Of a DNA stretch of 64,000 nucleotides, positions 9,801 to 60,001 are shown piece after piece. Both the position numbers and the translations under genes were made by a program. The DNA is taken from the NCBI RefSeq assembly GCF_988242995.1, contig NZ_OZ547043.1. One strand, 5' to 3'. The number at the start of each line of letters is the position of its first letter. Position 1 is the stretch's first letter. The notes under the pieces are model-generated. The model was not told where the DNA came from. It searched no databases and saw only the letters and a list, made by a program, of their open reading frames with translations.

Positions 9801-10993
9801 ATGCAGGTAGCCCAGTTCAACTCTCACTACCAGTATGATCCCAAGTTCGAGCGCGGAATGTATCTGTATGAGCATCGTCGCTGTTTCAATAACATCATCG
9901 ACTACTGTAACTCACTTTGCTATCACGGTAAGTTGCAGCCTAAAAGAGGGATGGAAAAAGGACGATTTTCCCCGCAATGGGATATTTACATATTGATGGT
10001 AGAGGCATGAAGCCAAATGGAGGGAGCCGTCATAACCCTCTTGAAGCTGAAACAATAGCAGCATGGCTGGTGGCACATAAGGATGATATAGAGCGCCATT
10101 ACGGGGAACCACTGTACAAAGTTGTTGGTGTTGTGACGCCATTTTCGGCGCAGGTTAATGCTATCAAAATGTCATTGCGTAAGCTGGAAATTAATGGCAA
10201 AGACGAGCAGGGTTTACTGACAGTGGGGACTGTGCACTCCTTGCAGGGGGCGGAAAGGGCGATTGTTCTCTTTTCTCCTGTCTACTCAAAACATGAAGAT
10301 GGCAGGTTTCTTGATAGCAACAGCACTATCCTCAATGTTGCTGTCTCACGCGCTAAAGATAGTTTTCTGGTATTTGGCGATATGGACCTTATCGAGATGC
10401 AGCCCGCATTTTCGCCGCGAGGGTTATTGGCAAAATATCTCTTTTCTTCAGATAATAATGCGTTGCAATTTGAGTTTCAGAAACGACAGGATTTAATTTC
10501 CGCACATACACAAATTTCAACGCTGCATGGTGTGGAGCAGCATGATGAATTTTTGAACAAGACTCTTGCCGGAGCTCAAAAGAAAATAACGATTATTTCC
10601 CCTTGGTTATCCTGGCAAAAAGTGGAGCAAACGGGATTTCTGGCATCAATGGCTTTGGCCCGTTCCCGGGGCATTGATATTACCGTGGTGACGGATAAAA
10701 ACTGCAATATAGCGCATGTCGATGATGATAAGCGTCAGGAGAAACAACATCTGCTGAATGATGCTGTTGAAAAGCTCAATAAGATGGGTATCGCTACGAA
10801 ATTGGTTAATCGTGTTCACAGCAAAATTGTGATTGAGGATGAAGAACTGCTGTGTGTCGGATCTTTTAACTGGTTCAGTGCTACACGGGAAGATAAGTAT
10901 CAACGATACGATACGTCTTTGGTGTACCGTGGTGAAGGCGTAAAAAATGAAATAAAGGCAATATATGGTAGTCTGGATCAACGTCAGCTTTAA
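9801..10993 (+). pseudogene. yjhR: remnant of SF1 helicase (C-terminal lobe) fused to PLD-family nuclease domain; frameshifted and 5'-truncated
   Basis: Two consecutive frames (9801-10010 and 9977-10993). Helicase motifs V/VI ([28 protein letters not shown]) and an HxKxxxxD motif (HSKIVIED at about 10816-10839). No room upstream for a Walker-A lobe. Confidence 0.65.
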
Positions 10994-11575
10994 ATGTGAT
11001 GAGCCGTTCATGATACAGGAGTAGTAAAGGGCATATTTTACCAATGTTAAGGCGACTTTCCGTTTTATTGCGAGTCGCCTTTCCTGATTATAAATCTTAT
11101 TGTTTACCTAATCATTTTCCTTTGCATAATGCGCCTGGGATTAATGGCGGGTGCTTTTAGGAATGAAAGAAAATGCAAGCAATAATATAATAATGGCCTA
11201 ATTTCTTTGAACATCATTAAGCATATCATCATCGTCTATTTGCCAGAATCCGTCGACTTATAATCGCCAGAACGGCATATCAGGACGGTGCTGCGAACGC
11301 TGTGGCCCAAAACGTTCCAGTAAACTGTGTAGATGTTCGTAGATTTCCGAGCCATAATCGAAAAGGCGCGGATGTCTATTAAGGCATCCGGCTAATCTGT
11401 AAGCAATAACAACGGTTTATGCGGTACGCGTTTTTCACCCTTGTGCCAGATTATTATATTGGCAATTGCCTGCTGTTCGAGCCCGCAAGTGAAGAGATAT
11501 TACCTTGATCTCATTTGTTTTTTGTTGTCTACTCTGAGAACGAACAAGGACATCCCCCATGAATAAACTCCCCGC

Positions 11576-12556
11576 TCACCTTTCGCGCCAAAACTGCAAA
11601 ATTGCTTCTACAAATCTGTCAGAAATAATCCCCCGACGGGCTGCAGTGCTGAAATGACTGCTTCGCAGTGCCGTCGTCCAGTTCTCCGGTGACCGGTACG
11701 CTGAACCGTAATATCCCGTGCTTAAATCGTCCGGGTCTTCATCAGGCGCGTTCGTCAGTCCTCTTTCACCTTGTTGCTGGAAGTCGACGAAAATAATATT
11801 GGCTAAAACATTATTTTGATAATTGCCATAAATAGCTTCATACGAATGCGGGAAATTTTCTTTCCAGTACCAGGTGGTATCGCCGCAAAACCACGGCGCG
11901 TCAGTAATATTATTAAGCTGAGAATGGTATTGTTTTAGATCCCTACGAAAGGCTTCAACCATATGATTAAAGTGTTGAGGGTGTGACGCGTAGTCACTGG
12001 TCATTAAGTCAAATTCGCCTTGCATCCAGCATGCGCCGAGGAATTTGTTCTGCGGATTTTTTGCCAGTGCGGCTCGCGTTCTGCTGACTAAATCCTGGTA
12101 CAGCGGAGTATCCGTTCCCCAACGACAAGCATCATGGCTGGCTCCGTGCCGTTCTGAATATGTCCCTTCGCTGCCCGCGGTAAAAGCCGATCCGCCACGG
12201 CAACACGGAACGATAAGAATCCCTGCATTATCAGGAATGAAGGGCAGTAATTTCCGTGCAATATGCAGTGCCTGGCCAACGGTGCCGTACTGTGTTTGAT
12301 GATTCGTTGCCAGAGGATGGTGATAACCCTGCATATCCTGAACATCGTGTGGGCAGTGAGTCAGTGGAATAATGTCGTTAAAGTGACATGGCGGGCCTCC
12401 GGGATGCGTATGCGCAAATCTCGCTAATTGTTTAATTCTGGGATGAGGCGCATCTTCCCTGTCCGGTAATGGCAGTCCTTCGCCATACGCCATGGCATTA
12501 GACTGACCAGCAACGGTAAGAACATAGTAATAATCGGGCGATATTATTGCGTTCAT
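11576..12556 (-). CDS. nanS: 9-O-acetyl-N-acetylneuraminate esterase
   Basis: 335-aa ORF; start placed at MNAIISPDYYY... for about 326 aa; recognised as NanS/YjhS. Confidence 0.8.
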   Translation of the reverse strand: MNAIISPDYYYVLTVAGQSNAMAYGEGLPLPDREDAPHPRIKQLARFAHTHPGGPPCHFNDIIPLTHCPHDVQDMQGYHHPLATNHQTQYGTVGQALHIARKLLPFIPDNAGILIVPCCRGGSAFTAGSEGTYSERHGASHDACRWGTDTPLYQDLVSRTRAALAKNPQNKFLGACWMQGEFDLMTSDYASHPQHFNHMVEAFRRDLKQYHSQLNNITDAPWFCGDTTWYWKENFPHSYEAIYGNYQNNVLANIIFVDFQQQGERGLTNAPDEDPDDLSTGYYGSAYRSPENWTTALRSSHFSTAARRGIISDRFVEAILQFWRER

Positions 12557-15918: not shown

Positions 15919-16521
15919 ATGAAGAATAAGGCTGATAACAAAAAAAGGAACTTCCTGACCCATAGTGAAATCGAATCACTCCTTAAAGCAGCAAATACCG
16001 GGCCTCATGCAGCACGTAATTATTGTCTGACTTTGCTTTGTTTTATTCATGGTTTCCGGGCGAGTGAAATTTGTCGATTGAGGATTTCGGATATTGATCT
16101 TAAGGCAAAGTGTATATATATCCATCGATTAAAAAAAGGCTTTTCAACAACGCACCCGCTATTGAATAAAGAAGTTCAGGCTTTAAAAAACTGGTTGAGT
16201 ATCCGTACTTCGTACCCGCATGCTGAGAGCGAGTGGGTATTTTTATCACGTAAGGGGAATCCGCTTTCTCGGCAACAGTTTTACCATATTATCTCGACTT
16301 CCGGTGGTAATGCCGGGTTGTCACTGGAGATTCATCCGCACATGTTACGCCATTCGTGTGGTTTTGCTTTGGCGAATATGGGAATAGATACGCGACTTAT
16401 CCAGGATTATCTTGGGCATCGCAATATTCGTCATACTGTCTGGTATACCGCCAGCAATGCAGGGCGTTTTTACGGCATCTGGGATAGAGCCAGAGGACGA
16501 CAGCGTCACGCTGTTTTATAG
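15919..16521 (+). CDS. fimB: tyrosine recombinase FimB (fim switch ON/OFF bidirectional)
   Basis: ATG at 15919 (MKNKADNKKRNF...), 200 aa; tyrosine-recombinase motifs (HPHMLRHS...LGHRNIRHTVWYT). Confidence 0.95.
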   Translation: MKNKADNKKRNFLTHSEIESLLKAANTGPHAARNYCLTLLCFIHGFRASEICRLRISDIDLKAKCIYIHRLKKGFSTTHPLLNKEVQALKNWLSIRTSYPHAESEWVFLSRKGNPLSRQQFYHIISTSGGNAGLSLEIHPHMLRHSCGFALANMGIDTRLIQDYLGHRNIRHTVWYTASNAGRFYGIWDRARGRQRHAVL

Positions 16522-16998: not shown

Positions 16999-17595
16999 GT
17001 GAGTAAACGTCGTTATCTTACCGGTAAAGAAGTTCAGGCCATGATGCAGGCGGTTTGTTACGGGGCAACGGGAGCCAGAGATTATTGTCTTATTCTGTTG
17101 GCATATCGGCATGGGATGCGTATTAGTGAACTGCTTGATCTGCATTATCAGGACCTTGACCTTAATGAAGGTAGAATAAATATTCGCCGACTGAAGAACG
17201 GATTTTCTACCGTTCACCCGTTACGTTTTGATGAGCGTGAAGCCGTGGAACGCTGGACCCAGGAACGTGCTAACTGGAAAGGCGCTGACCGGACTGACGC
17301 TATATTTATTTCTCGCCGCGGGAGTCGGCTTTCTCGCCAGCAGGCCTATCGCATTATTCGCGATGCCGGTATTGAAGCTGGAACCGTAACGCAGACTCAT
17401 CCTCATATGTTAAGGCATGCTTGCGGTTATGAATTGGCGGAGCGTGGTGCAGATACTCGTTTAATTCAGGATTATCTCGGGCATCGAAATATTCGCCATA
17501 CTGTGCGTTATACCGCCAGTAATGCTGCTCGTTTTGCCGGATTATGGGAAAGAAATAATCTCATAAACGAAAAATTAAAAAGAGAAGAGGTTTGA
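16999..17595 (+). CDS. fimE: tyrosine recombinase FimE (ON-to-OFF)
   Basis: 198-aa paralogue of FimB with the same R...HxxR...Y catalytic motifs. Confidence 0.95.
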   Translation: MSKRRYLTGKEVQAMMQAVCYGATGARDYCLILLAYRHGMRISELLDLHYQDLDLNEGRINIRRLKNGFSTVHPLRFDEREAVERWTQERANWKGADRTDAIFISRRGSRLSRQQAYRIIRDAGIEAGTVTQTHPHMLRHACGYELAERGADTRLIQDYLGHRNIRHTVRYTASNAARFAGLWERNNLINEKLKREEV

Positions 17596-17643
17596 TTTAA
17601 CTTATTGATAATAAAGTTAAAAAAACAAATAAATACAAGACAA

Positions 17644-17957
17644 TTGGGGCCAAACTGTCCATATCATAAATAAGTTACGTATTTTTTCTCAAGCATAAAA
17701 ATATTAAAAAACGACAAAAAGCATCTAACTGTTTGATATGTAAATTATTTCTATTGTAAATTAATTTCACATCACCTCCGCTATATGTAAAGCTAACGTT
17801 TCTGTGGCTCGACGCATCTTCCTCATTCTTCTCTCCAAAAACCACCTCATGCAATATAAACATCTATAAATAAAGATAACAATAGAATATTAAGCCAACA
17901 AATAAACTGAAAAAGTTTGTCCGCGATGCTTTCCTCTATGAGTCAAAATGGCCCCAA
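17644..17957. promoter_or_regulatory. fimS: fimS invertible element (314 bp) bounded by 9-bp inverted repeats
   Basis: TTGGGGCCA at 17644-17652 and its reverse complement TGGCCCCAA at 17949-17957, between fimE and fimA. Confidence 0.85.
17663..17692 (-). promoter_or_regulatory. sigma70-like promoter inside fimS, reading toward fimE (away from fimA)
   Basis: Minus strand TTGAGA (plus 17687-17692), 18-nt spacer, TATGAT (plus 17663-17668), a few bp inside the left inverted repeat. Confidence 0.5.
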
Positions 17958-18076
17958 ATGTTTCATCTTTTGGGGGAAAACTGTGCAGTGTTGGCAGTCA
18001 AACTCGTTGACAAAACAAAGTGTACAGAACGACTGCCCATGTCGATTTAGAAATAGTTTTTTGAAAGGAAAGCAGC

Positions 18077-18625
18077 ATGAAAATTAAAACTCTGGCAATC
18101 GTTGTTCTGTCGGCTCTGTCCCTCAGTTCTACAGCGGCTCTGGCCGCTGCCACGACGGTTAATGGTGGGACCGTTCACTTTAAAGGGGAAGTTGTTAACG
18201 CCGCTTGCGCAGTTGATGCAGGCTCTGTTGATCAAACCGTTCAGTTAGGACAGGTTCGTACCGCATCGCTGGCACAGGAAGGAGCAACCAGTTCTGCTGT
18301 CGGTTTTAACATTCAGCTGAATGATTGCGATACCAATGTTGCATCTAAAGCCGCTGTTGCCTTTTTAGGTACGGCGATTGATGCGGGTCATACCAACGTT
18401 CTGGCTCTGCAGAGTTCAGCTGCGGGTAGCGCAACAAACGTTGGTGTGCAGATCCTGGACAGAACGGGTGCTGCGCTGACGCTGGATGGTGCGACATTTA
18501 GTTCAGAAACAACCCTGAATAACGGAACCAATACCATTCCGTTCCAGGCGCGTTATTTTGCAACCGGGGCCGCAACCCCGGGTGCTGCTAATGCGGATGC
18601 GACCTTCAAGGTTCAGTATCAATAA
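18077..18625 (+). CDS. fimA: type 1 fimbrial major subunit
   Basis: 182-aa ORF with signal peptide and Ala/Thr-rich pilin sequence ending in a C-terminal beta-strand (FKVQYQ). Confidence 0.95.
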
Positions 18626-18689
18626 CCTACCCAGGTTCAGGGACGTCATTACGGGCAGGGATGCCCACCCTTGTGCGATAAAAATAACG

Positions 18690-19229
18690 ATGAAAAGGAA
18701 GAGATTATTTCTATTAGCGTCGTTGCTGCCAATGTTTGCTCTGGCCGGAAATAAATGGAATACCACGTTGCCCGGCGGAAATATGCAATTTCAGGGCGTC
18801 ATTATTGCGGAAACTTGCCGGATTGAAGCCGGTGATAAACAAATGACGGTCAATATGGGGCAAATCAGCAGTAACCGGTTTCATGCGGTTGGGGAAGATA
18901 GCGCACCGGTGCCTTTTGTTATTCATTTACGGGAATGTAGCACGGTGGTGAGTGAACGTGTAGGTGTGGCGTTTCACGGTGTCGCGGATGGTAAAAATCC
19001 GGATGTGCTTTCCGTGGGAGAGGGGCCAGGGATAGCCACCAATATTGGCGTAGCGTTGTTTGATGATGAAGGAAACCTCGTACCGATTAATCGTCCTCCA
19101 GCAAACTGGAAACGGCTTTATTCAGGCTCTACTTCGCTACATTTCATCGCCAAATATCGTGCTACCGGGCGTCGGGTTACTGGCGGCATCGCCAATGCCC
19201 AGGCCTGGTTCTCTTTAACCTATCAGTAA
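18690..19229 (+). CDS. fimI: fimbrial subunit FimI
   Basis: ATG at 18690 ([19 protein letters not shown]...), 179 aa, pilin-like with C-terminal SLTYQ. Confidence 0.9.
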
Positions 19230-19265
19230 TTGTTCAGCAGATAATGTGATAACAGGAACAGGACA

Positions 19266-19991
19266 GTGAGTAATAAAAACGTCAATGTAAGGAAATCGCA
19301 GGAAATAACATTCTGCTTGCTGGCAGGTATCCTGATGTTCATGGCAATGATGGTTGCCGGACGCGCTGAAGCGGGAGTGGCCTTAGGTGCGACTCGCGTA
19401 ATTTATCCGGCAGGGCAAAAACAAGTGCAACTTGCCGTGACAAATAATGATGAAAATAGTACCTATTTAATTCAATCATGGGTGGAAAATGCCGATGGTG
19501 TAAAGGATGGTCGTTTTATCGTGACGCCTCCTCTGTTTGCGATGAAGGGAAAAAAAGAGAATACCTTACGTATTCTTGATGCAACAAATAACCAATTGCC
19601 ACAGGACCGGGAAAGTTTATTCTGGATGAACGTTAAAGCGATTCCGTCAATGGATAAATCAAAATTGACTGAGAATACGCTACAGCTCGCAATTATCAGC
19701 CGCATTAAACTGTACTATCGCCCGGCTAAATTAGCGTTGCCACCCGATCAGGCCGCAGAAAAATTAAGATTTCGTCGTAGCGCGAATTCTCTGACGCTGA
19801 TTAACCCGACACCCTATTACCTGACGGTAACAGAGTTGAATGCCGGAACCCGGGTTCTTGAAAATGCATTGGTGCCTCCAATGGGCGAAAGCACGGTTAA
19901 ATTGCCTTCTGATGCAGGAAGCAATATTACTTACCGAACAATAAATGATTATGGCGCACTTACCCCCAAAATGACGGGCGTAATGGAATAA
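19266..19991 (+). CDS. fimC: periplasmic fimbrial chaperone
   Basis: 241-aa PapD-like chaperone. Confidence 0.95.
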   Translation: MSNKNVNVRKSQEITFCLLAGILMFMAMMVAGRAEAGVALGATRVIYPAGQKQVQLAVTNNDENSTYLIQSWVENADGVKDGRFIVTPPLFAMKGKKENTLRILDATNNQLPQDRESLFWMNVKAIPSMDKSKLTENTLQLAIISRIKLYYRPAKLALPPDQAAEKLRFRRSANSLTLINPTPYYLTVTELNAGTRVLENALVPPMGESTVKLPSDAGSNITYRTINDYGALTPKMTGVME

Positions 19992-20057
19992 CGCAGGGGG
20001 AATTTTTCGCCTGAATAAAAAGAATTGACTGCCGGGTGATTTTAAGCCGGAGGAATA

Positions 20058-22694
20058 ATGTCATATCTGAATTTAAGACTTTACCAGCGAAACACACAAT
20101 GCTTGCATATTCGTAAGCATCGTTTGGCTGGTTTTTTTGTCCGACTCGTTGTCGCCTGTGCTTTTGCCGCACAGGCACCTTTGTCATCTGCCGACCTCTA
20201 TTTTAATCCGCGCTTTTTAGCGGATGATCCCCAGGCTGTGGCCGATTTATCGCGTTTTGAAAATGGGCAAGAATTACCGCCAGGGACGTATCGCGTCGAT
20301 ATCTATTTGAATAATGGTTATATGGCAACGCGTGATGTCACATTTAATACGGGCGACAGTGAACAAGGGATTGTTCCCTGCCTGACACGCGCGCAACTCG
20401 CCAGTATGGGGCTGAATACGGCTTCTGTCGCCGGTATGAATCTGCTGGCGGATGATGCCTGTGTGCCATTAACCACAATGGTCCAGGACGCTACTGCGCA
20501 TCTGGATGTTGGTCAGCAGCGACTGAACCTGACGATCCCTCAGGCATTTATGAGTAATCGCGCGCGTGGTTATATTCCTCCTGAGTTATGGGATCCCGGT
20601 ATTAATGCCGGATTGCTCAATTATAATTTCAGCGGAAATAGTGTACAGAATCGGATTGGGGGTAACAGCCATTATGCATATTTAAACCTACAGAGTGGGT
20701 TAAATATTGGTGCGTGGCGTTTACGCGACAATACCACCTGGAGTTATAACAGTAGCGACAGATCATCAGGTAGCAAAAATAAATGGCAGCATATCAATAC
20801 CTGGCTTGAGCGAGACATAATACCGTTACGTTCCCGGCTGACGCTGGGTGATGGTTATACTCAGGGCGATATTTTCGATGGTATTAACTTTCGCGGCGCA
20901 CAATTGGCCTCAGATGACAATATGTTACCCGATAGTCAAAGAGGATTTGCCCCGGTGATCCACGGTATTGCTCGTGGTACTGCACAGGTCACTATTAAAC
21001 AAAATGGGTATGACATTTATAATAGTACGGTGCCACCGGGGCCTTTTACCATCAACGATATCTATGCCGCAGGTAATAGTGGTGACTTGCAGGTAACGAT
21101 CAAAGAGGCTGACGGCAGCACGCAGATTTTTACCGTACCCTATTCGTCAGTCCCGCTTTTGCAACGTGAAGGGCATACTCGTTATTCCATTACGGCAGGA
21201 GAATACCGTAGTGGAAATGCGCAGCAGGAAAAACCCCGCTTTTTCCAGAGTACATTACTCCACGGCCTTCCGGCTGGCTGGACAATATATGGTGGAACGC
21301 AACTGGCGGATCGTTATCGTGCTTTTAATTTCGGTATCGGGAAAAACATGGGGGCACTGGGCGCTCTGTCTGTGGATATGACGCAGGCTAATTCCACACT
21401 TCCCGATGACAGTCAGCATGACGGACAATCGGTGCGTTTTCTCTATAACAAATCGCTCAATGAATCAGGCACGAATATTCAGTTAGTGGGTTACCGTTAT
21501 TCGACCAGCGGATATTTTAATTTCGCTGATACAACATACAGTCGAATGAATGGCTACAACATCGAAACACAGGACGGAGTTATTCAGGTTAAGCCGAAAT
21601 TCACCGACTATTACAACCTCGCTTATAACAAACGCGGGAAATTACAACTCACCGTTACTCAGCAACTCGGGCGCACATCAACACTGTATTTGAGTGGTAG
21701 CCATCAAACTTATTGGGGAACGAGTAATGTCGATGAGCAATTCCAGGCTGGATTAAATACTGCGTTCGAAGATATCAACTGGACGCTCAGCTATAGCCTG
21801 ACGAAAAACGCCTGGCAAAAAGGACGGGATCAGATGTTAGCGCTTAACGTCAATATTCCTTTCAGCCACTGGCTGCGTTCTGACAGTAAATCTCAGTGGC
21901 GACATGCCAGTGCCAGCTACAGCATGTCACACGATCTCAACGGTCGGATGACCAATCTGGCTGGTGTATACGGTACGTTGCTGGAAGACAACAACCTCAG
22001 CTATAGCGTGCAAACCGGCTATGCCGGGGGAGGCGATGGAAATAGCGGAAGTACAGGCTACGCCACGCTGAATTATCGCGGTGGTTACGGCAATGCCAAT
22101 ATCGGTTACAGCCATAGCGATGATATTAAGCAGCTCTATTACGGAGTCAGCGGTGGGGTACTGGCTCATGCCAATGGCGTAACGCTGGGGCAGCCGTTAA
22201 ACGATACGGTGGTGCTTGTTAAAGCGCCTGGCGCAAAAGATGCAAAAGTCGAAAACCAGACGGGGGTGCGTACCGACTGGCGTGGTTATGCCGTGCTGCC
22301 TTATGCCACTGAATATCGGGAAAATAGAGTGGCGCTGGATACCAATACCCTGGCTGATAACGTCGATTTAGATAACGCGGTTGCTAACGTTGTTCCCACT
22401 CGTGGGGCGATCGTGCGAGCAGAGTTTAAAGCGCGCGTTGGGATAAAACTGCTCATGACGCTGACCCACAATAATAAGCCGCTGCCGTTTGGGGCGATGG
22501 TGACATCAGAGAGTAGCCAGAGTAGCGGCATTGTTGCGGATAATGGTCAGGTTTACCTCAGCGGAATGCCTTTAGCGGGAAAAGTTCAGGTGAAATGGGG
22601 AGAAGAGGAAAATGCTCACTGTGTCGCCAATTATCAACTGCCACCAGAGAGTCAGCAGCAGTTATTAACCCAGCTATCAGCTGAATGTCGTTAA
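20058..22694 (+). CDS. fimD: outer-membrane fimbrial usher
   Basis: 878-aa usher-family protein. Confidence 0.95.
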   Translation: MSYLNLRLYQRNTQCLHIRKHRLAGFFVRLVVACAFAAQAPLSSADLYFNPRFLADDPQAVADLSRFENGQELPPGTYRVDIYLNNGYMATRDVTFNTGDSEQGIVPCLTRAQLASMGLNTASVAGMNLLADDACVPLTTMVQDATAHLDVGQQRLNLTIPQAFMSNRARGYIPPELWDPGINAGLLNYNFSGNSVQNRIGGNSHYAYLNLQSGLNIGAWRLRDNTTWSYNSSDRSSGSKNKWQHINTWLERDIIPLRSRLTLGDGYTQGDIFDGINFRGAQLASDDNMLPDSQRGFAPVIHGIARGTAQVTIKQNGYDIYNSTVPPGPFTINDIYAAGNSGDLQVTIKEADGSTQIFTVPYSSVPLLQREGHTRYSITAGEYRSGNAQQEKPRFFQSTLLHGLPAGWTIYGGTQLADRYRAFNFGIGKNMGALGALSVDMTQANSTLPDDSQHDGQSVRFLYNKSLNESGTNIQLVGYRYSTSGYFNFADTTYSRMNGYNIETQDGVIQVKPKFTDYYNLAYNKRGKLQLTVTQQLGRTSTLYLSGSHQTYWGTSNVDEQFQAGLNTAFEDINWTLSYSLTKNAWQKGRDQMLALNVNIPFSHWLRSDSKSQWRHASASYSMSHDLNGRMTNLAGVYGTLLEDNNLSYSVQTGYAGGGDGNSGSTGYATLNYRGGYGNANIGYSHSDDIKQLYYGVSGGVLAHANGVTLGQPLNDTVVLVKAPGAKDAKVENQTGVRTDWRGYAVLPYATEYRENRVALDTNTLADNVDLDNAVANVVPTRGAIVRAEFKARVGIKLLMTLTHNNKPLPFGAMVTSESSQSSGIVADNGQVYLSGMPLAGKVQVKWGEEENAHCVANYQLPPESQQQLLTQLSAECR

Positions 22695-22700
22695 GGGGGC

Positions 22701-23234
22701 GTGATGAGAAACAAACCTTTTTATCTTCTGTGCGCTTTTTTGTGGCTGGCGGTGAGTCACGCTTTGGCTGCGGATAGCACGATTACTATCCGCGGCTATG
22801 TCAGGGATAACGGCTGTAGTGTGGCCGCTGAATCAACCAATTTTACTGTTGATCTGATGGAAAACGCGGCGAAGCAATTTAACAACATTGGCGCGACGAC
22901 TCCTGTTGTTCCATTTCGTATTTTGCTGTCACCCTGTGGTAATGCCGTTTCTGCCGTAAAGGTTGGGTTTACTGGCGTTGCAGATAGCCACAATGCCAAC
23001 CTGCTTGCACTTGAAAATACGGTGTCAGCGGCTTCGGGACTGGGAATACAGCTTCTGAATGAGCAGCAAAATCAAATACCCCTTAATGCTCCATCGTCCG
23101 CGCTTTCGTGGACGACCCTGACGCCGGGTAAACCAAATACGCTGAATTTTTACGCCCGGCTAATGGCGACACAGGTGCCTGTCACTGCGGGGCATATCAA
23201 TGCCACGGCTACCTTCACTCTTGAATATCAGTAA
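22701..23234 (+). CDS. fimF: minor fimbrial subunit FimF
   Basis: 177-aa pilin-like ORF (true start may be 22704). Confidence 0.9.
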
Positions 23235-23240
23235 CTGGAG

Positions 23241-23750
23241 ATGCTCATGAAATGGTGCAAACGTGGGTATGTATTGGCGGCAATATTGGCGCTCGCAAGT
23301 GCGACGATACAGGCAGCCGATGTCACCATCACGGTGAACGGTAAGGTCGTCGCCAAACCGTGTACGGTTTCCACCACCAATGCCACGGTTGATCTCGGCG
23401 ATCTTTATTCTTTCAGTCTTATGTCTGCCGGGGCGGCATCGGCCTGGCATGATGTTGCGCTTGAGTTGACTAATTGTCCGGTGGGAACGTCGAGGGTCAC
23501 TGCCAGCTTCAGCGGGGCAGCCGACAGTACCGGATATTATAAAAACCAGGGGACCGCGCAAAACATCCAGTTAGAGCTACAGGATGACAGTGGCAACACA
23601 TTGAATACTGGCGCAACCAAAACAGTTCAGGTGGATGATTCCTCACAATCAGCGCACTTCCCGTTACAGGTCAGAGCATTGACAGTAAATGGCGGAGCCA
23701 CTCAGGGAACCATTCAGGCAGTGATTAGCATCACCTATACCTACAGCTGA
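23241..23750 (+). CDS. fimG: minor fimbrial subunit FimG
   Basis: 169-aa pilin-like ORF. Confidence 0.9.
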   Translation: MLMKWCKRGYVLAAILALASATIQAADVTITVNGKVVAKPCTVSTTNATVDLGDLYSFSLMSAGAASAWHDVALELTNCPVGTSRVTASFSGAADSTGYYKNQGTAQNIQLELQDDSGNTLNTGATKTVQVDDSSQSAHFPLQVRALTVNGGATQGTIQAVISITYTYS

Positions 23751-23760
23751 ACCCGAAGAG

Positions 23761-24672
23761 ATGATTGTAATGAAACGAGTTATTACCCTGTTTGCTGTAC
23801 TGCTGATGGGCTGGTCGGTAAATGCCTGGTCATTCGCCTGTAAAACCGCCAATGGTACCGCTATCCCTATTGGCGGTGGCAGCGCCAATGTTTATGTAAA
23901 CCTTGCGCCCGTCGTGAATGTGGGGCAAAACCTGGTCGTGGATCTTTCGACGCAAATCTTTTGCCATAACGATTATCCGGAAACCATTACAGACTATGTC
24001 ACACTGCAACGAGGCTCGGCTTATGGCGGCGTGTTATCTAATTTTTCCGGGACCGTAAAATATAGTGGCAGTAGCTATCCATTTCCTACCACCAGCGAAA
24101 CGCCGCGCGTTGTTTATAATTCGAGAACGGATAAGCCGTGGCCGGTGGCGCTTTATTTGACGCCTGTGAGCAGTGCGGGCGGGGTGGCGATTAAAGCTGG
24201 CTCATTAATTGCCGTGCTTATTTTGCGACAGACCAACAACTATAACAGCGATGATTTCCAGTTTGTGTGGAATATTTACGCCAATAATGATGTGGTGGTG
24301 CCTACTGGCGGCTGCGATGTTTCTGCTCGTGATGTCACCGTTACTCTGCCGGACTACCCTGGTTCAGTGCCAATTCCTCTTACCGTTTATTGTGCGAAAA
24401 GCCAAAACCTGGGGTATTACCTCTCCGGCACAACCGCAGATGCGGGCAACTCGATTTTCACCAATACCGCGTCGTTTTCACCTGCACAGGGCGTCGGCGT
24501 ACAGTTGACGCGCAACGGTACGATTATTCCAGCGAATAACACGGTATCGTTAGGAGCAGTAGGGACTTCGGCGGTGAGTCTGGGATTAACGGCAAATTAT
24601 GCACGTACCGGAGGGCAGGTGACTGCAGGGAATGTGCAATCGATTATTGGCGTGACTTTTGTTTATCAATAA
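23761..24672 (+). CDS. fimH: mannose-binding fimbrial adhesin
   Basis: 303-aa ORF (start may be 23770); lectin domain followed by pilin domain ending VTFVYQ. Confidence 0.95.
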   Translation: MIVMKRVITLFAVLLMGWSVNAWSFACKTANGTAIPIGGGSANVYVNLAPVVNVGQNLVVDLSTQIFCHNDYPETITDYVTLQRGSAYGGVLSNFSGTVKYSGSSYPFPTTSETPRVVYNSRTDKPWPVALYLTPVSSAGGVAIKAGSLIAVLILRQTNNYNSDDFQFVWNIYANNDVVVPTGGCDVSARDVTVTLPDYPGSVPIPLTVYCAKSQNLGYYLSGTTADAGNSIFTNTASFSPAQGVGVQLTRNGTIIPANNTVSLGAVGTSAVSLGLTANYARTGGQVTAGNVQSIIGVTFVYQ

Positions 24673-43959: not shown

Positions 43960-44874
43960 ATGACAAACTTCACGACCAGCACGCCGCATGATGCATTATT
44001 TAAAACCTTTCTCACGCACCCTGACACTGCGCGGGATTTTATGGAGATTCACTTACCTAAAGATTTACGTGAACTGTGCGATCTCGATAGCTTAAAACTG
44101 GAATCCGCCAGCTTTGTCGATGAAAAATTGCGGGCGCTACACTCCGATATTTTATGGTCGGTAAAGACCCGCGAAGGCGATGGCTATATCTATGTGGTGA
44201 TTGAACATCAGAGCCGCGAGGACATTCATATGGCCTTTCGCCTGATGCGCTATTCCATGGCGGTGATGCAGCGCCATATAGAGCATGATAAACGCCAGCC
44301 GCTACCGTTGGTCATCCCGATGCTATTTTATCACGGTAGCCGTAGTCCTTACCCCTGGTCCCTGTGCTGGCTGGACGAATTTGCCGACCCGACTACCGCA
44401 CGGAAGCTTTATAACGCCGCGTTCCCGCTGGTGGATGTTACTGTCGTGCCAGACGACGAGATTGTGCAGCATCGCAGAGTCGCCCTGTTGGAGTTGATCC
44501 AAAAGCATATTCGCCAGCGCGATCTGATGGGGCTTATCGATCAACTGGTAGTATTACTGGTTACAGAGTGTGCTAATGACAGCCAGATAACTGCGCTGTT
44601 AAATTACATTTTACTGACTGGCGATGAAGCGCGTTTTAATGAGTTTATCAGTGAACTTACCCGTCGAATGCCACAACACAGGGAGCGAATAATGACGATT
44701 GCAGAGCGAATTCATAATGATGGATATATAAAAGGGGAGCAGCGCATTCTTCGATTGTTGTTGCAGAATGGGGCGGATCCTGAATGGATACAAAAGATTA
44801 CCGGACTTTCGGCAGAGCAAATGCAGGCATTAAGGCAGCCCTTGCCTGAGCGCTATTCATGGCTCAAGAGCTAA
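43960..44874 (+). CDS. rpnD: Rpn-family (YhgA-like, PD-(D/E)xK) recombination-promoting nuclease, intact
   Basis: 304-aa ORF with D...E-x-Q nuclease core (DILWSV...YVVIEHQS). Confidence 0.7.
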
Positions 44875-47320: not shown

Positions 47321-50300
47321 ATGTTGTGGGGTTTTGTTTTTGTATCTTTTATCTCTAAGGAGCTTGCTTTGGGTCAATCAGAATACATTTCATGGGTAAA
47401 ATGTACTTCCTGGCTAAGTAACTTTGTGAATCTTAGAGGGTTGAGACAACCGGATGGACGTCCTCTTTATGAATATCATGCAACCAATGCTGAATATAAC
47501 CAATTAACGCAGCTACTCTGTGCTGTTGGTCAATCACAATCTAATATATGTAATAGAGACTTTGCTGCCTGTTTTGTTCTTTTTTGCTCTGAGTGGTACC
47601 GCAGGGATTATGAACGGCAATGCGGATGGACGTGGGACCCTATATATAAAAAAATAGGGATTTCATTCACCGCCACAGAGCTTGGTACTATCGTACCGAA
47701 AGGGATGGAAGATTACTGGCTGCGCCCAATTCGATTTTATGAATCTGAACGACGTAATTTTCTCGGAACATTATTCAGTGAAGGTGGTTTACCTTTCCGG
47801 CTACTCAAAGAATCAGACAGTCGCTTTCTGGCTGTTTTCTCCAGGATCCTTGGACAATATGAGCAAGCAAAGCAGTCAGGTTTTTCTGCCCTTTCGCTGG
47901 CAAGAGCTGTCATAGAAAAATCAGCGCTGCCAACTGTTTTTAGCGAAGATACCTCTGTAGAACTTATCAGTCATATGGCTGATAACCTCAATTCCTTAGT
48001 ACTTACTCACAACCTAACAAATCACAAAGAACCAGTACAACAGCTTGATAAGGTTCACCCTACCTGGCGAAGCGAGTTTCCAATACCGTTAGATGATGAA
48101 ACAGGAACGCATTTTTTGAATGGACTGCTATGCGCAGCCTCTGTAGAGGCTAAGCCTCGACTACAAAAAAATAAGAGTACGCGTTGCCAATTCTATTGGT
48201 CAGAAAAGCATCCAGATGAGCTTAGGGTGATAGTATCTCTTCCTGACGAAGTTTCCTTTCCTGTAACTAGCGAGCCGTCAACTACGCGCTTTGAACTTGC
48301 CATTTATGAAGATGGTGAGGAAGTCTCTGGCCTTGGGCCAGCCTATGCTTCCCTGGAAAACAGACAGGCAACAGTTCGATTACGTAAAAGCGAAGTGAGA
48401 TTTGTCAGGCAAAATCCATCTGCAGGTTTGTCGTTAGTGGCTCGTGCTGGAGGGATGATTGTTGGGAGCATTAAACTTGATGACAGTGAAATTGCCATTG
48501 GTGAGGTGCCGTTAACCTTCATCGTTGATGCAGATCAATGGCTGTTACAGGGACAGGCCTCCTGCAGTGTGCGAAGCAGCGATGTTCTGATTGTGCTCCC
48601 TCGGGACAATAGCACTGTTGCTGGTTTTGATGGCCAATCGAGTGCAGTAAACGTATTAGGACTTAAAGCGCTACCTGTTAAGGGATGTCAGGACGTTACA
48701 GTTACAGCAAATGAAACTTATCGGATTCGCACCGGAAGAGAACAAATCAGCATCGGAAGGTTTGCTCTAAATGGAAAGCGTGCAAGCTGGGTTTGTCATC
48801 CAGATGAGACATTTATTGGTGTACCAAAAGTCATTTCTACACTACCAGATATTCAAAGCATTGATGTAACGCGTTACCTGAGCGGAATTTCAATTGAGCA
48901 ATGTCATATACAAGAGATGCTAGGGGCTCAATATCTTTCTATCCGTAATAGTAATAATGAAACGCTCTTGCGTCGCAAAATCGGTATCTTGCCTGCTGAT
49001 TTCAGTATTGAGATAAAAGGTGGAATGCACGCAAATGAAGGCACTATCGTAATCACCACACAGCATCCTTGTGTAGCAACACTTAAAGATAAAACATTGG
49101 AGGCTACACGTAAGCGTACTGAGGGGCGAACAGAGATACAACTCAAAGCGGAAGGGGTACCTCCGGCATTTATTACATTACAAGTTCTGCCTAATTTGGC
49201 GGCTGATACCATCGACATTGAGTTACCTTTCCCAGCTAAAGGCTGCCTTGCTCTTGATGTAAACGGACGTCCTCTGGATAAAAACATTACGCTGCATGAT
49301 CTGCTGGGTTCCAGAGCATTCCTGTTCTCCAGAAATGGTGAGCCGACAAAATATACATTGCAGTTGCATTTGCGCTCCATTAGTGGATTACAGGCATGGC
49401 ACGAATGGAGTTATACGGCATTGAGCGAGCGTCCTGTTGAATTGAATCTCTATAGTCTACGTGAACACATTGAAAATCTGATTTCACTTGAGGCAGGTAT
49501 TGATCAGGTTGTTGAGATGCGTATTACGGGGGCGGGTGTGGTCATGGCCTGGCAAATTCGTCGCTATAAATACAGCCTGCGCTATGATTATGAAAAAGAA
49601 CTATTACTCAGCCAGTCAGTGAACCATCGTGCTGGACAGATTCCTTCCCCCGTTATCATGCTGTTAAGTGAACCCGAGAGGAAATCCATTCCCTTAGCAT
49701 CAAGAATGAGCGAGGGAGTGCCTGTCGGTGAATATGAGTTGAGCTCAATCGTTAACAAAAACGGACCATGGTTGGTTGTTCCTAAACCGGGTGAAGAGAT
49801 GGCTTTTCGCCCCTGCTTCATTCGTGGCGAATCTTCGTTACCGGTAGAAGAAAGCAACATCCGCTCATTGCAGAAAGCGACCCAGCTTTTTAATCCACAG
49901 GCAGAAGTTAATACCATCACACGGGTTCTCGGACAGATGGCTAACGATCCTGCCCATTCCGGCTGGCAATTTATGCGTAGCCTGTACGATCAATTTGGTT
50001 ATTTACCGCTGGCAACCTTTGAAGTATGGCGTGCACTAGTGCAGCATCCGCAGGCATTGGCGATGTCGCTCTTCAAATTCGAAATGTCAGCAGAGTATCT
50101 GAGTCGTATTGAGAATGAGTTCCCTATTTTATGGGAGTTTTTCCCCATCTTTGAGATCAAAGCTGCATCTGAGCGTTTCAAATTGTTCCTGAGCCAAAAA
50201 GGTGCACCGGAGGAAACCCAGAAATTACTGGTTACCAATATGTTTCAACGGCTGGGGCTCGTGTTCCCGACATATGCCGATGAAATTGAGAAATGGTTAA

Positions 50301-50659
50301 GTAATGGATATCTCCCCCCGTCTATTCCTGAATCTTGTGTCCACGGGTGGTATCAGGAGCTCTTACGTGAGCACAGTGAAGCTCGCTGGCCTGAATACGG
50401 CTGCAAGCGTCTGTATAAATGGATGATGTCACAAAAAAATCCAGTGATTGGTATTAATCCTGACGCAAATCACCGCTATTCCGTGGCCTGGTTACCCGTC
50501 TTCGCCGCAGCGGTGGCAAGCGGAAATGCTTCTTTTGAATCTGTATTTGACCGTAAACCCGGTGCCGTATTTTTCCTGAGGCAAGTCAGGGATTTCGATT
50601 CCCGCTGGTTTAAGGCCATCTTCCAGTTCAGCCTGTTGCGTTATGTTGCTAAAAAATAA
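47321..50659 (+). CDS. large protein (1112 aa) of unknown function, first gene of candidate defence operon
   Basis: Uninterrupted 3.3-kb ORF. No nucleotide-binding or nuclease motif recognised by eye. An in-frame TTG at 47369 preceded by AAGGAG may be the true start. Stop lies 12 nt before the helicase gene. Confidence 0.8.
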   Translation: MLWGFVFVSFISKELALGQSEYISWVKCTSWLSNFVNLRGLRQPDGRPLYEYHATNAEYNQLTQLLCAVGQSQSNICNRDFAACFVLFCSEWYRRDYERQCGWTWDPIYKKIGISFTATELGTIVPKGMEDYWLRPIRFYESERRNFLGTLFSEGGLPFRLLKESDSRFLAVFSRILGQYEQAKQSGFSALSLARAVIEKSALPTVFSEDTSVELISHMADNLNSLVLTHNLTNHKEPVQQLDKVHPTWRSEFPIPLDDETGTHFLNGLLCAASVEAKPRLQKNKSTRCQFYWSEKHPDELRVIVSLPDEVSFPVTSEPSTTRFELAIYEDGEEVSGLGPAYASLENRQATVRLRKSEVRFVRQNPSAGLSLVARAGGMIVGSIKLDDSEIAIGEVPLTFIVDADQWLLQGQASCSVRSSDVLIVLPRDNSTVAGFDGQSSAVNVLGLKALPVKGCQDVTVTANETYRIRTGREQISIGRFALNGKRASWVCHPDETFIGVPKVISTLPDIQSIDVTRYLSGISIEQCHIQEMLGAQYLSIRNSNNETLLRRKIGILPADFSIEIKGGMHANEGTIVITTQHPCVATLKDKTLEATRKRTEGRTEIQLKAEGVPPAFITLQVLPNLAADTIDIELPFPAKGCLALDVNGRPLDKNITLHDLLGSRAFLFSRNGEPTKYTLQLHLRSISGLQAWHEWSYTALSERPVELNLYSLREHIENLISLEAGIDQVVEMRITGAGVVMAWQIRRYKYSLRYDYEKELLLSQSVNHRAGQIPSPVIMLLSEPERKSIPLASRMSEGVPVGEYELSSIVNKNGPWLVVPKPGEEMAFRPCFIRGESSLPVEESNIRSLQKATQLFNPQAEVNTITRVLGQMANDPAHSGWQFMRSLYDQFGYLPLATFEVWRALVQHPQALAMSLFKFEMSAEYLSRIENEFPILWEFFPIFEIKAASERFKLFLSQKGAPEETQKLLVTNMFQRLGLVFPTYADEIEKWLSNGYLPPSIPESCVHGWYQELLREHSEARWPEYGCKRLYKWMMSQKNPVIGINPDANHRYSVAWLPVFAAAVASGNASFESVFDRKPGAVFFLRQVRDFDSRWFKAIFQFSLLRYVAKK

Positions 50660-50671
50660 AAAGGAATAAGG

Positions 50672-53600
50672 ATGACTACACGCTATTTTTCGTCACTTAT
50701 TGAACAATCGTTGTCTCGTTCAACTGAAGCAACGCTCAGTATCATGGGCGTTACAAACCCGCAGTTGCGTGAACATCTCGCGCAGCAAATGGGGGCTGAT
50801 TGTGGGAAACCGGGCTCATTCCTTGCTTCTCCGGTATTCCAGCAAATGTTTGGCTGGAAGGAGTCAAACCACACGATGCGCAGTCTGACGGAAGGCAACG
50901 CATTGTTGAGCAAAGCAGTGGTTGATTCACTGGATGATCAGAGTAATGGCCGGTACCGATTTGGTGCTGACTGGAAGCCTTTTACACACCAGTTAGCCAG
51001 TTGGAAAGCTTTGCTGGAAAAGAAACATTCAGTGGTGGTAACCAGTGGTACGGGTTCAGGTAAAACGGAATGTTTTATGGTACCGGTGCTGGAAGATCTT
51101 TACCGGGAACTGCATGAAAATGGCAACAATCCGTTGGTCGGTGTCCGAGCCCTTTTTCTCTATCCATTGAACGCCTTGATTAATTCACAGCGCGAGCGTC
51201 TGGATGCCTGGACGCGTGGTTTTGGTACTGGGATCCGCTACTGCTTGTATAACGGAAATACAGAAGAGCTCCACGCAAAAATGAAAACAGTGCAGGATAA
51301 TAGACCAAATGAAGTCTTATCCCGTGAAAAGATGCGTCTGGAGCCAGCCCCGATTCTGGTGACCAACGGCACGATGCTGGAATATATGATGGTTCGCCAG
51401 GTCGACGCCCCGATTATCCAGCAATCCAAAGCACAAAAATCACTACGCTGGATTGTACTGGATGAAGCGCATACCTATGTCGGGTCGCAGGCCGCTGAAC
51501 TGGCACTCCAGCTGCGTCGTGTGATGACAGCGTTTGGCGTGACGCCAGATGATGTGCGCTTTGTAGCGACCTCTGCGACCATTGCCTGCAGCGACGCCGA
51601 AAAGCAGCTGAAAAAATTTCTCTCTGAATTATCCGGTATCCCGCAGGAGCGCATCGATGTTCTGGACGGAAGTCGGGTGATTCCTGAACTGGAACCATCC
51701 AAAAACGTTTCTGTTCCGTTAGACGAAATAGAGCAAATACCTGATCTGGATCTAAAAGATAAAAATGATAATAAAATTAAAGGGATAAGCCCTGAGCGCT
51801 TTTATGCGCTTACGCACTCCCCCGAAGCGCGTTACATACGTGAAATGTTGGTTAGCCAACCCAATCCAATGAAACTGGATGAGATGACGCAGCGGTTAAA
51901 TGCGCTGACAAAACAGCATTACAGCCAGCAGGAAGTACTGCGTTGGATCGATGTCTGTTCAGGGACTCAACCTAATGCAAAGGATCCCGCATTTCTTAAA
52001 GTCAGGGCGCATATCTTCCAGCGTAATACCCAAGGAATATGGGCTTGTGTTGATAAAGATTGCAGATTAAAGCACGGTACACCGCTCGAAAAAGGCTGGC
52101 CCTTTGGCTATGTGTATGTGAACCAGCGACAAAATTGTGACTGTGGAAGCCCTGTATACGAAGTTGCATTCTGTAATGATTGTAATGAGCCTCATCTTCT
52201 GGCGCAGGACAAAAAGGGCAAACTTGTCCAATGGGAAAATAAAGGTGGCGATGAGTTCTCCTTGCAGGATGAAGTACCTGTTGAACATGACACTACAGAG
52301 GAAAAAGTCGAAAAAGAGAACGGTTTCCTGCCTCCGTTGATTATTGCCGCAGGAGAGACCAGCGAGACAGGCTATACCCTACAACGCCTCGACCACCAGA
52401 CGCGCCGTATTGGCGTTATTAACAATGACAGCATTCCGCTGATTATTAATGATGTTGAACAGGTTTGTAGCGCCAGTGGCTGTGGCTACAGAGGCATGAG
52501 TGGGAAACAGCCCTTCCGGCGTGCACTATTAGGTGGGCCATTTTACGTTACTAATATCGTGCCCACCGTTCTTGAGTATTGTCAGGACTTTACCAGTGAT
52601 GAAGGCAAAGAGGGCGTCGGACCAGATTCGTTGCCAGGGCGAGGACGTCGACTCATTACCTTTACGGACAGTCGACAAGGTACAGCTCGAATGGCGGTGC
52701 GTATGCAGCAAGAAGCAGAACGCAGTCTCTTACGCGGAAGCGTAGTCGAAATTCTGAGCTGGCATCAACGGACGCAAACGTCCACGGCGCCGAATGCCAA
52801 TGCCGATCTGGAAAAATTAGCGGCCAGGGCAAAGCAAGCCCGTGAGCAGGCAGAAGAATATCGAAGCTGGGGAATGCCAGACCAGGCGAAATTGTCACAA
52901 GCACAGGCTGAACAGCTTGAACAGGCTTATCAGGCTGCAACCGGTGGAAAAGCAGCAACTACCCTGGTATCCCGCACCTGGACAGAAATGGTTAACGAGC
53001 TTAAAGATAAAGCCGATATCCGTGGCCCGGTACTGAAATATAACCACTATTTGCAGCCTGAAGTGTTTAATAAAAACGGCGGGCCACTAAAGCTTTCGGA
53101 AATGTTGTTGTTCCGGGAATTCATGCGTCGCCCTAAACGGACTAACAGCCTGGAAACACAGGGGCTGGTTCAGGTTGGTTACCAGGGGCTGGAGAAAATA
53201 CATAAGAGCCCCTTGCACTGGCAGGAAAAAGGATTAACGCTGGATGACTGGCGCGATTTTCTCAAGGTTACGTTGGATCTTTATGTTCGCGAAAGCAACT
53301 TCACACAGCTGGATGATGAGCTGAAAAACTGGATTGGTAGCCGTTTTTCATCAAAATTCGTCCGTAACCCGGAATCAAAAGATCCTGAAGATAATCAGAA
53401 CAGACGCTGGCCTCAAATTCGTAATGGCAACGTATCCCATCGTTTAGCGAAGTTACTGATGCTGGGGGCTGGATTCAAAACCGTCAATACGGCGACTATT
53501 GATATTATCAATACATGGCTGAAAGAAGCATGGGCCCAACTTACCGGACCACTTGCAGTACTGAAACCCGATGGCAACCGTTTTTATTTACCGAAAGAGC

Positions 53601-56600
53601 ATATGACTTTTTCTTTAATCACGGATGCCTGGATTTGCCCGGTAACCAATAAAATCCTGGATACGGCTTTTAAAGGCTTAACCCCTTATCTGCCCACCCA
53701 TATTTCGTTCGAGCATCTTACCCAGGCGCAATATGACACTTTTGTCGCGCAGAAAGTCACCATGCCGGAAATCTGGAAGCTGGATCGTTCACAGGAAGAC
53801 TACGCAGAGGGTCTGGCAAAAGCACGAGACTGGGTCAACAATGATCCGCTGATCGCACAATTGCGGTCGGAAAACGTCTGGACAGACATCAACGATCGTG
53901 TAGTGGAAGGCGGTTTCTACTATCGCACTGCCGAGCACTCTGCCCAGCAGTCGTCAGAACGCCTGCAAAGCTATGAAAAGATGTTCAAGAACGGGCAACT
54001 AAATGTTCTCAACTGTTCCACCACCATGGAAATGGGGGTTGATATTGGGGGCATTACTGCGGTGGTAATGAACAACGTTCCGCCACATCCGGCCAACTAT
54101 TTACAGCGCGCCGGGCGAGCCGGGCGTAGTAAAGAATCACGCGCGATCTCTTATACCCTATGCAAAGGTAACCCACACGACCAGCAGGTTTTTGCCAACC
54201 CACTCTGGCCATTTGAAACCATGATCCCGGCACCCATGGTCGCGATGAACTCCGCCCGACTGGTGCAACGTCACGTCAATGCATTATTACTGTCTGACTT
54301 TTTATGTAACGTTATTGGCGAAACCGATAAAGAGAAAACCAGCCTCGATAGCCTCTGGTTTTTCGGTGAAGATGACGGGCAGTCAAAATGCGAACGCTTT
54401 AAAGTCTGGCTGGAACGCCCGGTTCTTGATATCGACATGGCGCTGGAACGGCTGGTGAAAGGTACGGCGTTGCATGGCGCAAGAGCCGAACATCTGCGGG
54501 ATAAAACAATCAATGCGATCACCTTCCTGCAACAGCGGTGGCTCTCCGTTTATCGCGATCTCGTGACCCAGGAGCGTGAGTCGCAGCCGCAAACGCCTTA
54601 TCGTAAGCGCATAGAGCTGGAGAAGAAACGGCACTGTGGCGAGTATCTGCTGCGCGATCTGGCTGCCAGAACCTTCCTGCCGGGATACGGTTTCCCGACA
54701 GATGTAGTGACGTTTGATAACTTCACGATGGAAGATTATATCCGCGAAAAATCGCAGAAAAGTCGTGATAAAAAGGACCGTGAAGATAACGTCTCCCGTT
54801 ATAAAGGATTACCTTCCCGTAACCTCGGTGTTGCCATTCGTGAATATGCACCGGGAGCAGAGATCATTCTTGATGGTCGTGTCTTCCGCTCTGCCGGTGT
54901 CTCACTGCACTGGCACAACATTAATGCTGATACCAATGAAGCCCAGCGTCTGGATTGCGCCTGGCGCTGTCACAAATGCGGGACCATTGGCTATGAAGAG
55001 GGGATGAGCAGTTCCGGGATGCTCTTTTGCTCCAACAGCGCCTGCGGCGAAAAAATAACCATGGATAATCGCCGTCAGGTGTTGCAGCCTGCCGGGTTTG
55101 TCACCGATGCACACGCTCCGGTAACGAACAATATTGAAACCATGAAATTCGTCCCGGTTGTCCCCGCGTGGGTCTTTGTTAAAGCAGAGCCTGTACCGTT
55201 GCCTAACCCGCTAATGGGTTATATGGCTTCTGGGGCTGATGGGCATGTTTTCCAGCAAAGTTTGGGGGAAGGTGGACACGGTTATGCATTGTGTCTGAGC
55301 TGTGGCCGTGCGGAGTCGATGCTGAATGAAAATGATGCACCGAAAAGTATGGAAGCTCACTATCCACCGCGTCCGGGTAAAGCGGACCGCGACAGCCAGA
55401 ATCATCGTCTGATTTGCCCCGGTTCGACGGCACTCATGAAGAACGTCACCCTGGGCGCACTGGCGCGCACCGATGTCTTTGAAATGGTTCTGCGCAAACC
55501 GCAAAACGGCGAGTATCTGCCAGATAACACAGAAGAGGGGCGGATTGTCGCTATGACTCTGGCGGTTGCTCTGCGTCAGGCGCTGGCAGGCGTTCTGGGT
55601 ATCTCCGCCGCAGAACTCGGCTATTCTGTACGTCCGGTCAGACTGGAGGATGGGCAATCGGTATTAGCCGTTCAGCTTTATGATGTGATCAGCGGTGGTG
55701 CTGGTTTTGCCTCCAGCGCACCGGTACATATTGAAGCTATATTGCAGGGAATGGTGAAACAGTTAGGCTGCCGCCATTGTGATACTGCATGCAGTGAATG
55801 TCTGCTTGATTCCCAGACTCGCCACGATCACGATTTGCTGGATCGCAAAGTGGCGCTGGCTTGGCTTGGCGATGACTTCACGTATTACATCGGTTTACCG
55901 GATGAAGAGACATTCTCGCTGCCGGATGCCCGCTACTGCCCTGGCGCTATTGGCGATACGATTCGCCGGGCGATTAACGAAGGCGCTGAAAAGCTCACCC
56001 TGTGGATGACTGGCGCGCCCAATGAGTGGGATTTATACGGCCGTCAGTTCCGCGCGGCTATTCAGAGCTATCGGCTAAAAGACAACGTCGAGGTCGATCT
56101 TGTTATTCCTGCGGGAGTGGATGACCCAGACCTGTTGCATGAACTATCGCAATTTACTGCGCTGGGTGTGCGGTTGTGCCATGTTGAGCAGGAGCTGCAA
56201 TTACCGATTGTTGCCCAGGTCACCTTTGCCGATCGCGTGATGACGCTGGCCTCTCGCAGTCAGCAGGCAACGATTCCGGGGCCGGAGTGGCACCTGAATG
56301 ACGAACTGGTGGTGCGTAGTCTCGGTTATCAAACGGTAGAACTGAACGAGTTTATTCTGCCCGCTAAAGCCGCCAACGCTGTCGAGCGGGTCAAAGACAT
56401 TCAGATCCACAAACAGTTGAATGGACCACTTTCGCAGTTTGGGCAACGCTTCTGGGACGTGCTGTTTAACGACCATGAAGAAGCGCAGTCACTGATGAAA
56501 AACACGCGAATTACCGGCGTTCACTATACCGATCGCTATCTGCAAAACCCGGTTGCGCTGGCGTTGTTGGGATCAATTCTGAAACCGCTAAAAACAAAGC

Positions 56601-57016
56601 TGACCGATGGCGCTGAAGTGGCGCTGGATACGCTGTTTAAAGATAAAGATCGCCCCGGTAACCGGCCTTTCCATGACTGGATGAGCATAGCGGATTTTCA
56701 GGATTTCGCTGATCAGTGGTTTGCTGCTGCGCTGGGCAGGCCGATAGAACTGACGGTGTTCGATTCGCCGCGCGATATCCCTCACCATCGTAAACTGACG
56801 GTGACTTTTGAGGATGGTCAGGTATTGAAGATCCGCTTCGATCAGGGGATGGGCTACTGGCGCATCAACTTTGCATCGCAATGGCATTACTTTGATTTCC
56901 GCGATGACGTTTCTTTCCAGTTAGTCAAAATGGCTCAGGCCTGCAAGGAAGGGAATGTGGCCAACAGCGAAGAGAGCTGGGCAACGGATGTGCTGGTGGA
57001 GGTGATCGCCTCCTGA
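50672..57016 (+). CDS. giant SF2 (DEAH-type) helicase, 2114 aa, with Cys-rich zinc-ribbon clusters (DUF1998/MrfA-like); DruE-like candidate
   Basis: Walker [11 protein letters not shown] (51041-51070); DEAH box VLDEAH (51455-51472); FVATSAT; motif [10 protein letters not shown] (54104-54127); Cys clusters at 52046-52183, 54956-55045, 55292-55303 and 55769-55801; AAGGA RBS before the ATG. Confidence 0.85.
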
Positions 57017-59659: not shown

Positions 59660-60001
59660 TTACGCGACTTTCTGTTTACCGGCAATCACTCCAATAAACG
59701 CCTGCACCTGCTTTTGTTTACGTGCCGACAGCTTGCACACCTGGCGCAGCGACTGCATCAGTTCGCTCTCTTCGACGGCGAGTGGTTGGGCGGTGAGGAC
59801 AATACAGCCTTCCATCACTTTGACATCTACCGCCGTGCCGGTGGTAAAACCGGCGGCTTCCAGCCACTGACCTTTCAGGGTGATGGCGGGAATACGGCTG
59901 TAATCCGGGTAGCGACTCGCATAACTCACGGTTAATTGACGGTTATTTGCCGGGGAGACTTCTGCTTCGAACGGTTGTGCAATAGAATGCATGTCAGTCA
60001 T
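59660..60001 (-). CDS. symE: SOS-induced toxin SymE (AbrB-fold RNA endonuclease-like)
   Basis: 113-aa [55 protein letters not shown]...; upstream LexA box. Confidence 0.85.

Follow-up and report, generated by a model that had tools for sequence, protein, structure and literature searches.

The type 1 fimbriae phase-variation switch of an Escherichia coli genome and its evident OFF orientation

The window analysed here, a 64-kb stretch of contig NZ_OZ547043.1 (RefSeq assembly GCF_988242995.1), is closest to Escherichia coli strain CFS3313 and its relatives, from which its first 25 kb depart by 4 mismatches, and it is of a non-K-12 background. It contains the genes of the type 1 fimbriae system arrayed around a short element bounded by inverted repeats:

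15919–16521, plus strand: fimB, tyrosine-type DNA invertase acting in both directions (200-aa ORF; NCBIfam NF007370, 458 bits against a cutoff of 221)
16999–17595, plus strand: fimE, tyrosine-type DNA invertase acting from ON to OFF (198-aa ORF with a GTG start; NCBIfam NF007371, 452 bits against a cutoff of 222)
17644–17957, unstranded: fimS, the invertible element, evidently in the phase-OFF orientation (314/314 identity to NC_000913.3 4542682–4542995, and four published OFF criteria)
17644–17652, plus strand: IRL, the left 9-bp inverted repeat TTGGGGCCA, a recombination site (repeat search; sequence as published)
17949–17957, minus strand: IRR, the right 9-bp inverted repeat, exact reverse complement of TTGGGGCCA
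18077–18625, plus strand: fimA, major fimbrial subunit, cut off from its promoter in the OFF state (ORF; NCBIfam NF011741, 182 bits against a cutoff of 140; annotation)
18690–24672, plus strand: fimI, fimC, fimD, fimF, fimG and fimH, remaining genes of the operon that the switch promoter serves (ORFs; annotation of near-identical DNA)

The preliminary description of this DNA had proposed a 314-bp element with 9-bp inverted repeats at this place, and this is borne out in full: the length is exactly that of fimS with both repeats included, the repeats are perfect, and their sequence, TTGGGGCCA, is the one published for fimS (PMC8777976, PMC9820224). The 9-mer and its reverse complement have no further copies in the window (n = 2), but the pair taken by itself is statistically weak, i.e., at least two copies turn up in 8 of 100 shuffles. 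The identity of the element is nevertheless secure because of its context—it lies between the intact fimE and fimA, with fimB further upstream, its repeat arms retain 77% complementarity when extended to 22 nt, and it is identical at all 314 positions to the switch of E. coli K-12 MG1655 (NC_000913.3 4542682–4542995), with which it also shares the orientation relative to fimE and fimA and the gene order fimB, fimE, switch, fimAICDFGH. Over the 4-kb stretch compared, MG1655 and the window are distinguished by two substitutions, both outside the AT-rich switch (G+C of 32%): 18009 T>G and 19426 A>T. There is no annotated fimS feature in the RefSeq records examined, and the Rfam and tRNA scans returned nothing in or near the switch.

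To the right of the switch, the possibility that fimG is truncated, as its short annotation in CFS3313 might imply, was rejected: the full frame, starting MKWCKRG, is present in the window, and the short annotation is therefore a matter of start-codon choice only. On the plus strand, the G at 18009 (T in MG1655) completes TTGACA, a perfect -35 hexamer, at 18007–18012. The hexamer lies in what would be the fimA 5' leader of ON cells, with IRR 50 bp to its left and the fimA ATG 65 bp downstream. The G is the common allele of E. coli, found in an exact 71-bp match in 3796 of 4717 genomes, and it is thus K-12 that is the odd one out. A switch-independent promoter at this hexamer was considered and rejected, as there is no -10 partner at 15–19 nt and the G is the common allele. 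At 18636–18670 lies the small RNA FimR2 (b4838 in NC_000913.3, just after fimA), with a sequence identical to that of K-12.

Elsewhere in the window, the only Rfam match is the SymR antitoxin RNA (59996–60072; 93 bits, gathering score 61), which adjoins symE, with the restriction genes mcrBC and hsd on either side. Two long intact plus-strand ORFs at 47321–50659 (1112 aa) and 50672–57016 (2114 aa) are annotated in the near-identical CFS3313 DNA as YjiT and a DEAD/DEAH box helicase; their K-12 counterparts we take to be truncated pseudogenes. At about 44846, the hexamer TGAGCG is single in the window and repeated in tandem in CFS3313, a 6-bp in-frame difference near the 3' end of a 304-aa ORF (43960–44874) annotated as an Rpn-family recombination-promoting nuclease. 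Finally, in the region corresponding to 9753–12556, the CFS3313 record annotates several genes as pseudogenes, namely a yjhR helicase with a frameshift, a phosphorothioated-DNA restriction endonuclease present as a fragment, and a sialate O-acetylesterase that is truncated.

The orientation of the switch was assessed by applying to the window, in silico, four independent published criteria, with an inversion at 17644–17957 serving for comparison. The asymmetric markers used are the following:

17676–17681, unstranded: SnaBI site TACGTA, asymmetric diagnostic marker
17895–17902, unstranded: core of the LRP-2-overlapping Fis site, the bases replaced in published mutagenesis (primer FBSFOR2, PMC9993118)
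17922–17925, unstranded: BstUI site CGCG, asymmetric diagnostic marker

The outcomes, as computed and as published, are as follows:

OL20/OL4 amplicon cut with BstUI: window 540+188 bp, inverted form 434+294 bp; published OFF 539+187, ON 433+293 (PMC9993118)
601-bp amplicon cut with SnaBI: window 440+162 bp, inverted form 406+196 bp; published OFF 440+161, ON 403+198 (PMC11724981)
Orientation-specific PCR: window exactly 884 bp, inverted form 413 bp; published OFF 884 bp, ON 394 bp (PMC11968103)
Fis site overlapping LRP-2: window 47–54 bp from IRR; published OFF about 50 bp from the right-hand repeat (PMC9993118)

In the orientation-specific PCR, the OFF pair combines a switch primer with a fimI primer and the ON pair a switch primer with a fimE primer (PMC11968103); in the window, both primers of the ON-specific pair point in the same direction, such that no amplification is possible. 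The wild-type sequence under primer FBSFOR2 (PMC9993118) maps to 17880–17915. The computed fragment sizes are off from the published ones by 1–3 bp, and by 19 bp for the ON-specific PCR (413 versus 394), with the ON/OFF call unaffected. Thus, all four criteria agree with the earlier proposal that the switch is in the phase-OFF orientation, and in the three assays with published ON and OFF sizes the OFF patterns are those of the window, and the ON patterns are reproduced by the inverted form alone. We hold it to be nearly certain that this is the canonical E. coli type 1 fimbriae phase-variation switch, captured in its OFF orientation.

How this state compares with that of other genomes was surveyed across 5,426 complete E. 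coli genomes, of which 4726 have a megablast match to the fimE-fimS-fimA region and about 700 do not. In the first census, a 1101-bp query, either as is or with the switch inverted in silico, had to be covered to at least 80% by one collinear match; among the 4726 genomes with the locus, this placed 4452 in the orientation of the window and 251 in the inverse one. In a second census, run with 60-bp queries spanning the right junction and under an E-value limit by which half-matches are shut out, 4461 genomes were of the OFF type and 247 of the ON type. Hence, of roughly 4,700 complete genomes, about 95% are OFF and about 5% ON. Genomes of the ON type align to the in-silico inversion of 17644–17957 in one piece at 99.9% identity, which places the natural breakpoints at the repeats. 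In these phase-ON genomes (~250 assemblies, e.g., DH1 NC_017638.1 and MG1655 CP010444.1) the element, the repeats and the flanks are as in the window but, unlike in the window, the 296 bp enclosed by the repeats are in reverse complement, bringing the candidate promoter beside IRR to face fimA. That both orientations occur in sequenced E. coli thus holds for the element as a family, rather than for the window's own strain. An IS1 sits in fimE of some K-12 W3110-type assemblies, which are seen with either orientation of fimS.

These data also bear on the state of the culture. Assemblies labelled MG1655 occur in both states—OFF in NC_000913.3 and CP032667.1, and ON in CP010444.1, CP010439.1 and CP174267.1—and the orientation in an assembly therefore samples the state of a culture and is not a fixed property of a strain. 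That the sequenced culture was mostly OFF can reasonably be inferred from the consensus assembly. The alternative that survives best, unlikely as we consider it, is that an OFF assembly was drawn from a culture with a substantial ON/OFF mixture, or that the assembler or a reference-guided step picked a path arbitrarily; the occurrence of a single laboratory strain in both orientations speaks for it. Against it, both recombinases are intact, a situation for which published work leads one to expect a strong majority of OFF (PMC9993118, PMC2647292), and the roughly 95% of complete assemblies that are OFF are consistent with consensus calling on OFF-dominated cultures. A predominantly OFF culture is accordingly the reading that we prefer.

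The recombinases and the accessory sites bear in turn on whether such a switch can still move. The products of fimB and fimE are paralogous and both full length, and, with the positions of the catalytic residues taken from PMC9820224, the tetrads are present in FimB (R47, H141, R144, Y176) and in FimE (R41, H136, R139, Y171). The fimB DNA has zero mismatches to strain CFS3313, where the product is annotated as FimB under WP_000790583.1, and FimE is annotated in the near-identical CFS3313 DNA as WP_000044711.1; both are the MG1655 accessions, such that the window shares its FimB and FimE accessions with MG1655 via the annotation of near-identical DNA. Of the sites for the integration host factor, IHF-1 is described as adjoining IRL and IHF-2 as lying within fimS (PMC9993118), and matches to the IHF consensus, to be read as sequence matches only, occur at both expected places:

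17598–17610, minus strand: candidate IHF-1 site, outside the switch, 34 bp to the left of IRL (TATCAATAAGTTA, matching the IHF consensus WATCARNNNNTTR)
17726–17738, minus strand: candidate IHF-2 site, inside the switch (TATCAAACAGTTA, matching the IHF consensus)

As FimB and FimE are intact and retain their catalytic residues, the switch looks competent rather than locked, as far as can be judged from sequence, and, with fimE in this condition, a bias from ON to OFF is to be expected. A lock in the OFF state, caused by defective repeats, a defective element or defective recombinases, does have a precedent among some pathotypes, with EPEC E2348/69 described as being in this state (PMC9096935). 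For the present locus, such a lock is highly improbable: the 9-bp repeats are perfect, the element has its full length and matches the invertible K-12 one at every position, the recombinases are full-length proteins with K-12 accessions and conserved catalytic tetrads, and the IHF consensus sites are in place.

With an apparently competent switch in the OFF orientation, there remains the matter of the promoter that it carries. The best candidate is:

17663–17692, minus strand: candidate fimA promoter, pointing at fimE (-35 TTGAGA at 17692–17687, 18-nt spacer, -10 TATGAT at 17668–17663; consensus scan)

This is the site that had been singled out earlier as the top sigma70-like promoter of the element, and in a consensus scan of 17550–18100 it indeed ranks first of three sigma-70-like sites, agreeing with the consensus at 10 of 12 positions. 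Its predicted start, ~7 nt past the -10, falls at about 17656–17658, 3–5 bp inside IRL and directed toward fimE, in keeping with the earlier statement that transcription would begin a few bp inside the left repeat in that direction. Since the mapped fimA transcript start is stated to be an A (PMC9096935), it would fit 17656 or 17658. Inversion in silico puts the site beside IRR, where it faces fimA from about 132 nt upstream of the ATG. The primary mapping of the fimA transcript start is reportedly that of Olsen and Klemm 1994. A full-text literature search for the hexamers TTGAGA/TATGAT together with fimA returned nothing relevant. TTGAGA-18-TATGAT is hence a candidate for PfimA, an assignment that draws on the literature about fimS, which places the fim promoter inside the element and facing fimA only when ON (PMC2647292, PMC9993118).

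The three sites in 17550–18100 compare with 2.5 +/- 1.7 in shuffles, i.e., this AT-rich DNA is not enriched in them, and one other, TTGATA-18-TAAATT (17733–17762, plus strand, 9 of 12 positions), reads rightward. Because promoter-like sites occur at chance frequency, the pattern of the scan alone cannot identify the promoter, and it is for this reason that the experimentally calibrated orientation criteria were applied. That the arrangement is truly phase ON, with a rightward site such as TTGATA-18-TAAATT as the fimA promoter and the minus-strand site irrelevant, has next to no probability despite that plus-strand site, between which and its minus-strand counterpart the scan cannot choose, as three assays calibrated on fimbriate and afimbriate cells give OFF for the window and ON for its inversion, and the position of the Fis site also fits OFF.

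Taking the switch as OFF, its consequences can be framed by the known mechanism. The fim operon's promoter within fimS reaches fimA in the ON orientation only, and a Rho-dependent terminator of fimS truncates and destabilises the fimE transcript in the OFF orientation only; IHF, Lrp, Fis and H-NS shape the inversion reaction (all PMC9993118, PMC2647292, PMC11316696). FimB is unbiased, and FimE acts from ON to OFF and is dominant (PMC9993118, PMC2647292). Applied to the present locus, the candidate promoter TTGAGA-18-TATGAT would, in the OFF arrangement, fire toward fimE, leaving fimAICDFGH untranscribed and the cell without type 1 fimbriae. Transcripts of fimE entering the OFF switch would meet the Rho-dependent terminator of fimS and be shortened and destabilised; terminators of this kind are without a reliable sequence signature. 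A scan of 17550–18100 found no intrinsic terminator. From this state, FimB, aided by IHF and Lrp, would return the segment to ON at a low frequency, and FimE would efficiently turn ON switches to OFF, such that cultures with both recombinases would be mostly OFF. From the mechanism in the literature and the OFF orientation, we infer that fimAICDFGH is silent in the DNA molecule or molecules represented by the assembly.

A further idea is that the OFF-oriented fimA promoter would drive an antisense transcript from about 17656 leftward, through IRL and into the 3' end of fimE, and, together with the Rho-dependent terminator, help to keep FimE low in OFF cells. We consider this quite improbable; a search of the literature on antisense action by the OFF-oriented fimA promoter returned nothing relevant, and studies of the orientational control of fimE have already come close to the idea.

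A parallel may be drawn with the fim switch of Klebsiella pneumoniae (FimB/FimE/FimK), which works on a like principle, with a short invertible promoter, inverted repeats and adjoining recombinase genes, but differs from E. coli fimS in its sequences and accessory regulators. The element described here is an already known one in its usual state, and there is nothing new in it: its OFF orientation is ordinary, being common to the K-12 reference and about 95% of complete genomes. The record can be seen as that of an intact and apparently switchable type 1 fimbriae operon, silent in the DNA that was sequenced, a state that is normal for E. coli grown in broth or on plates when fimE works. Its import goes little beyond correct annotation. 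The practical point, which the census illustrates, is that the orientation of fimS in an assembly mirrors the culture as it was when sequenced, rather than being a trait of the strain.
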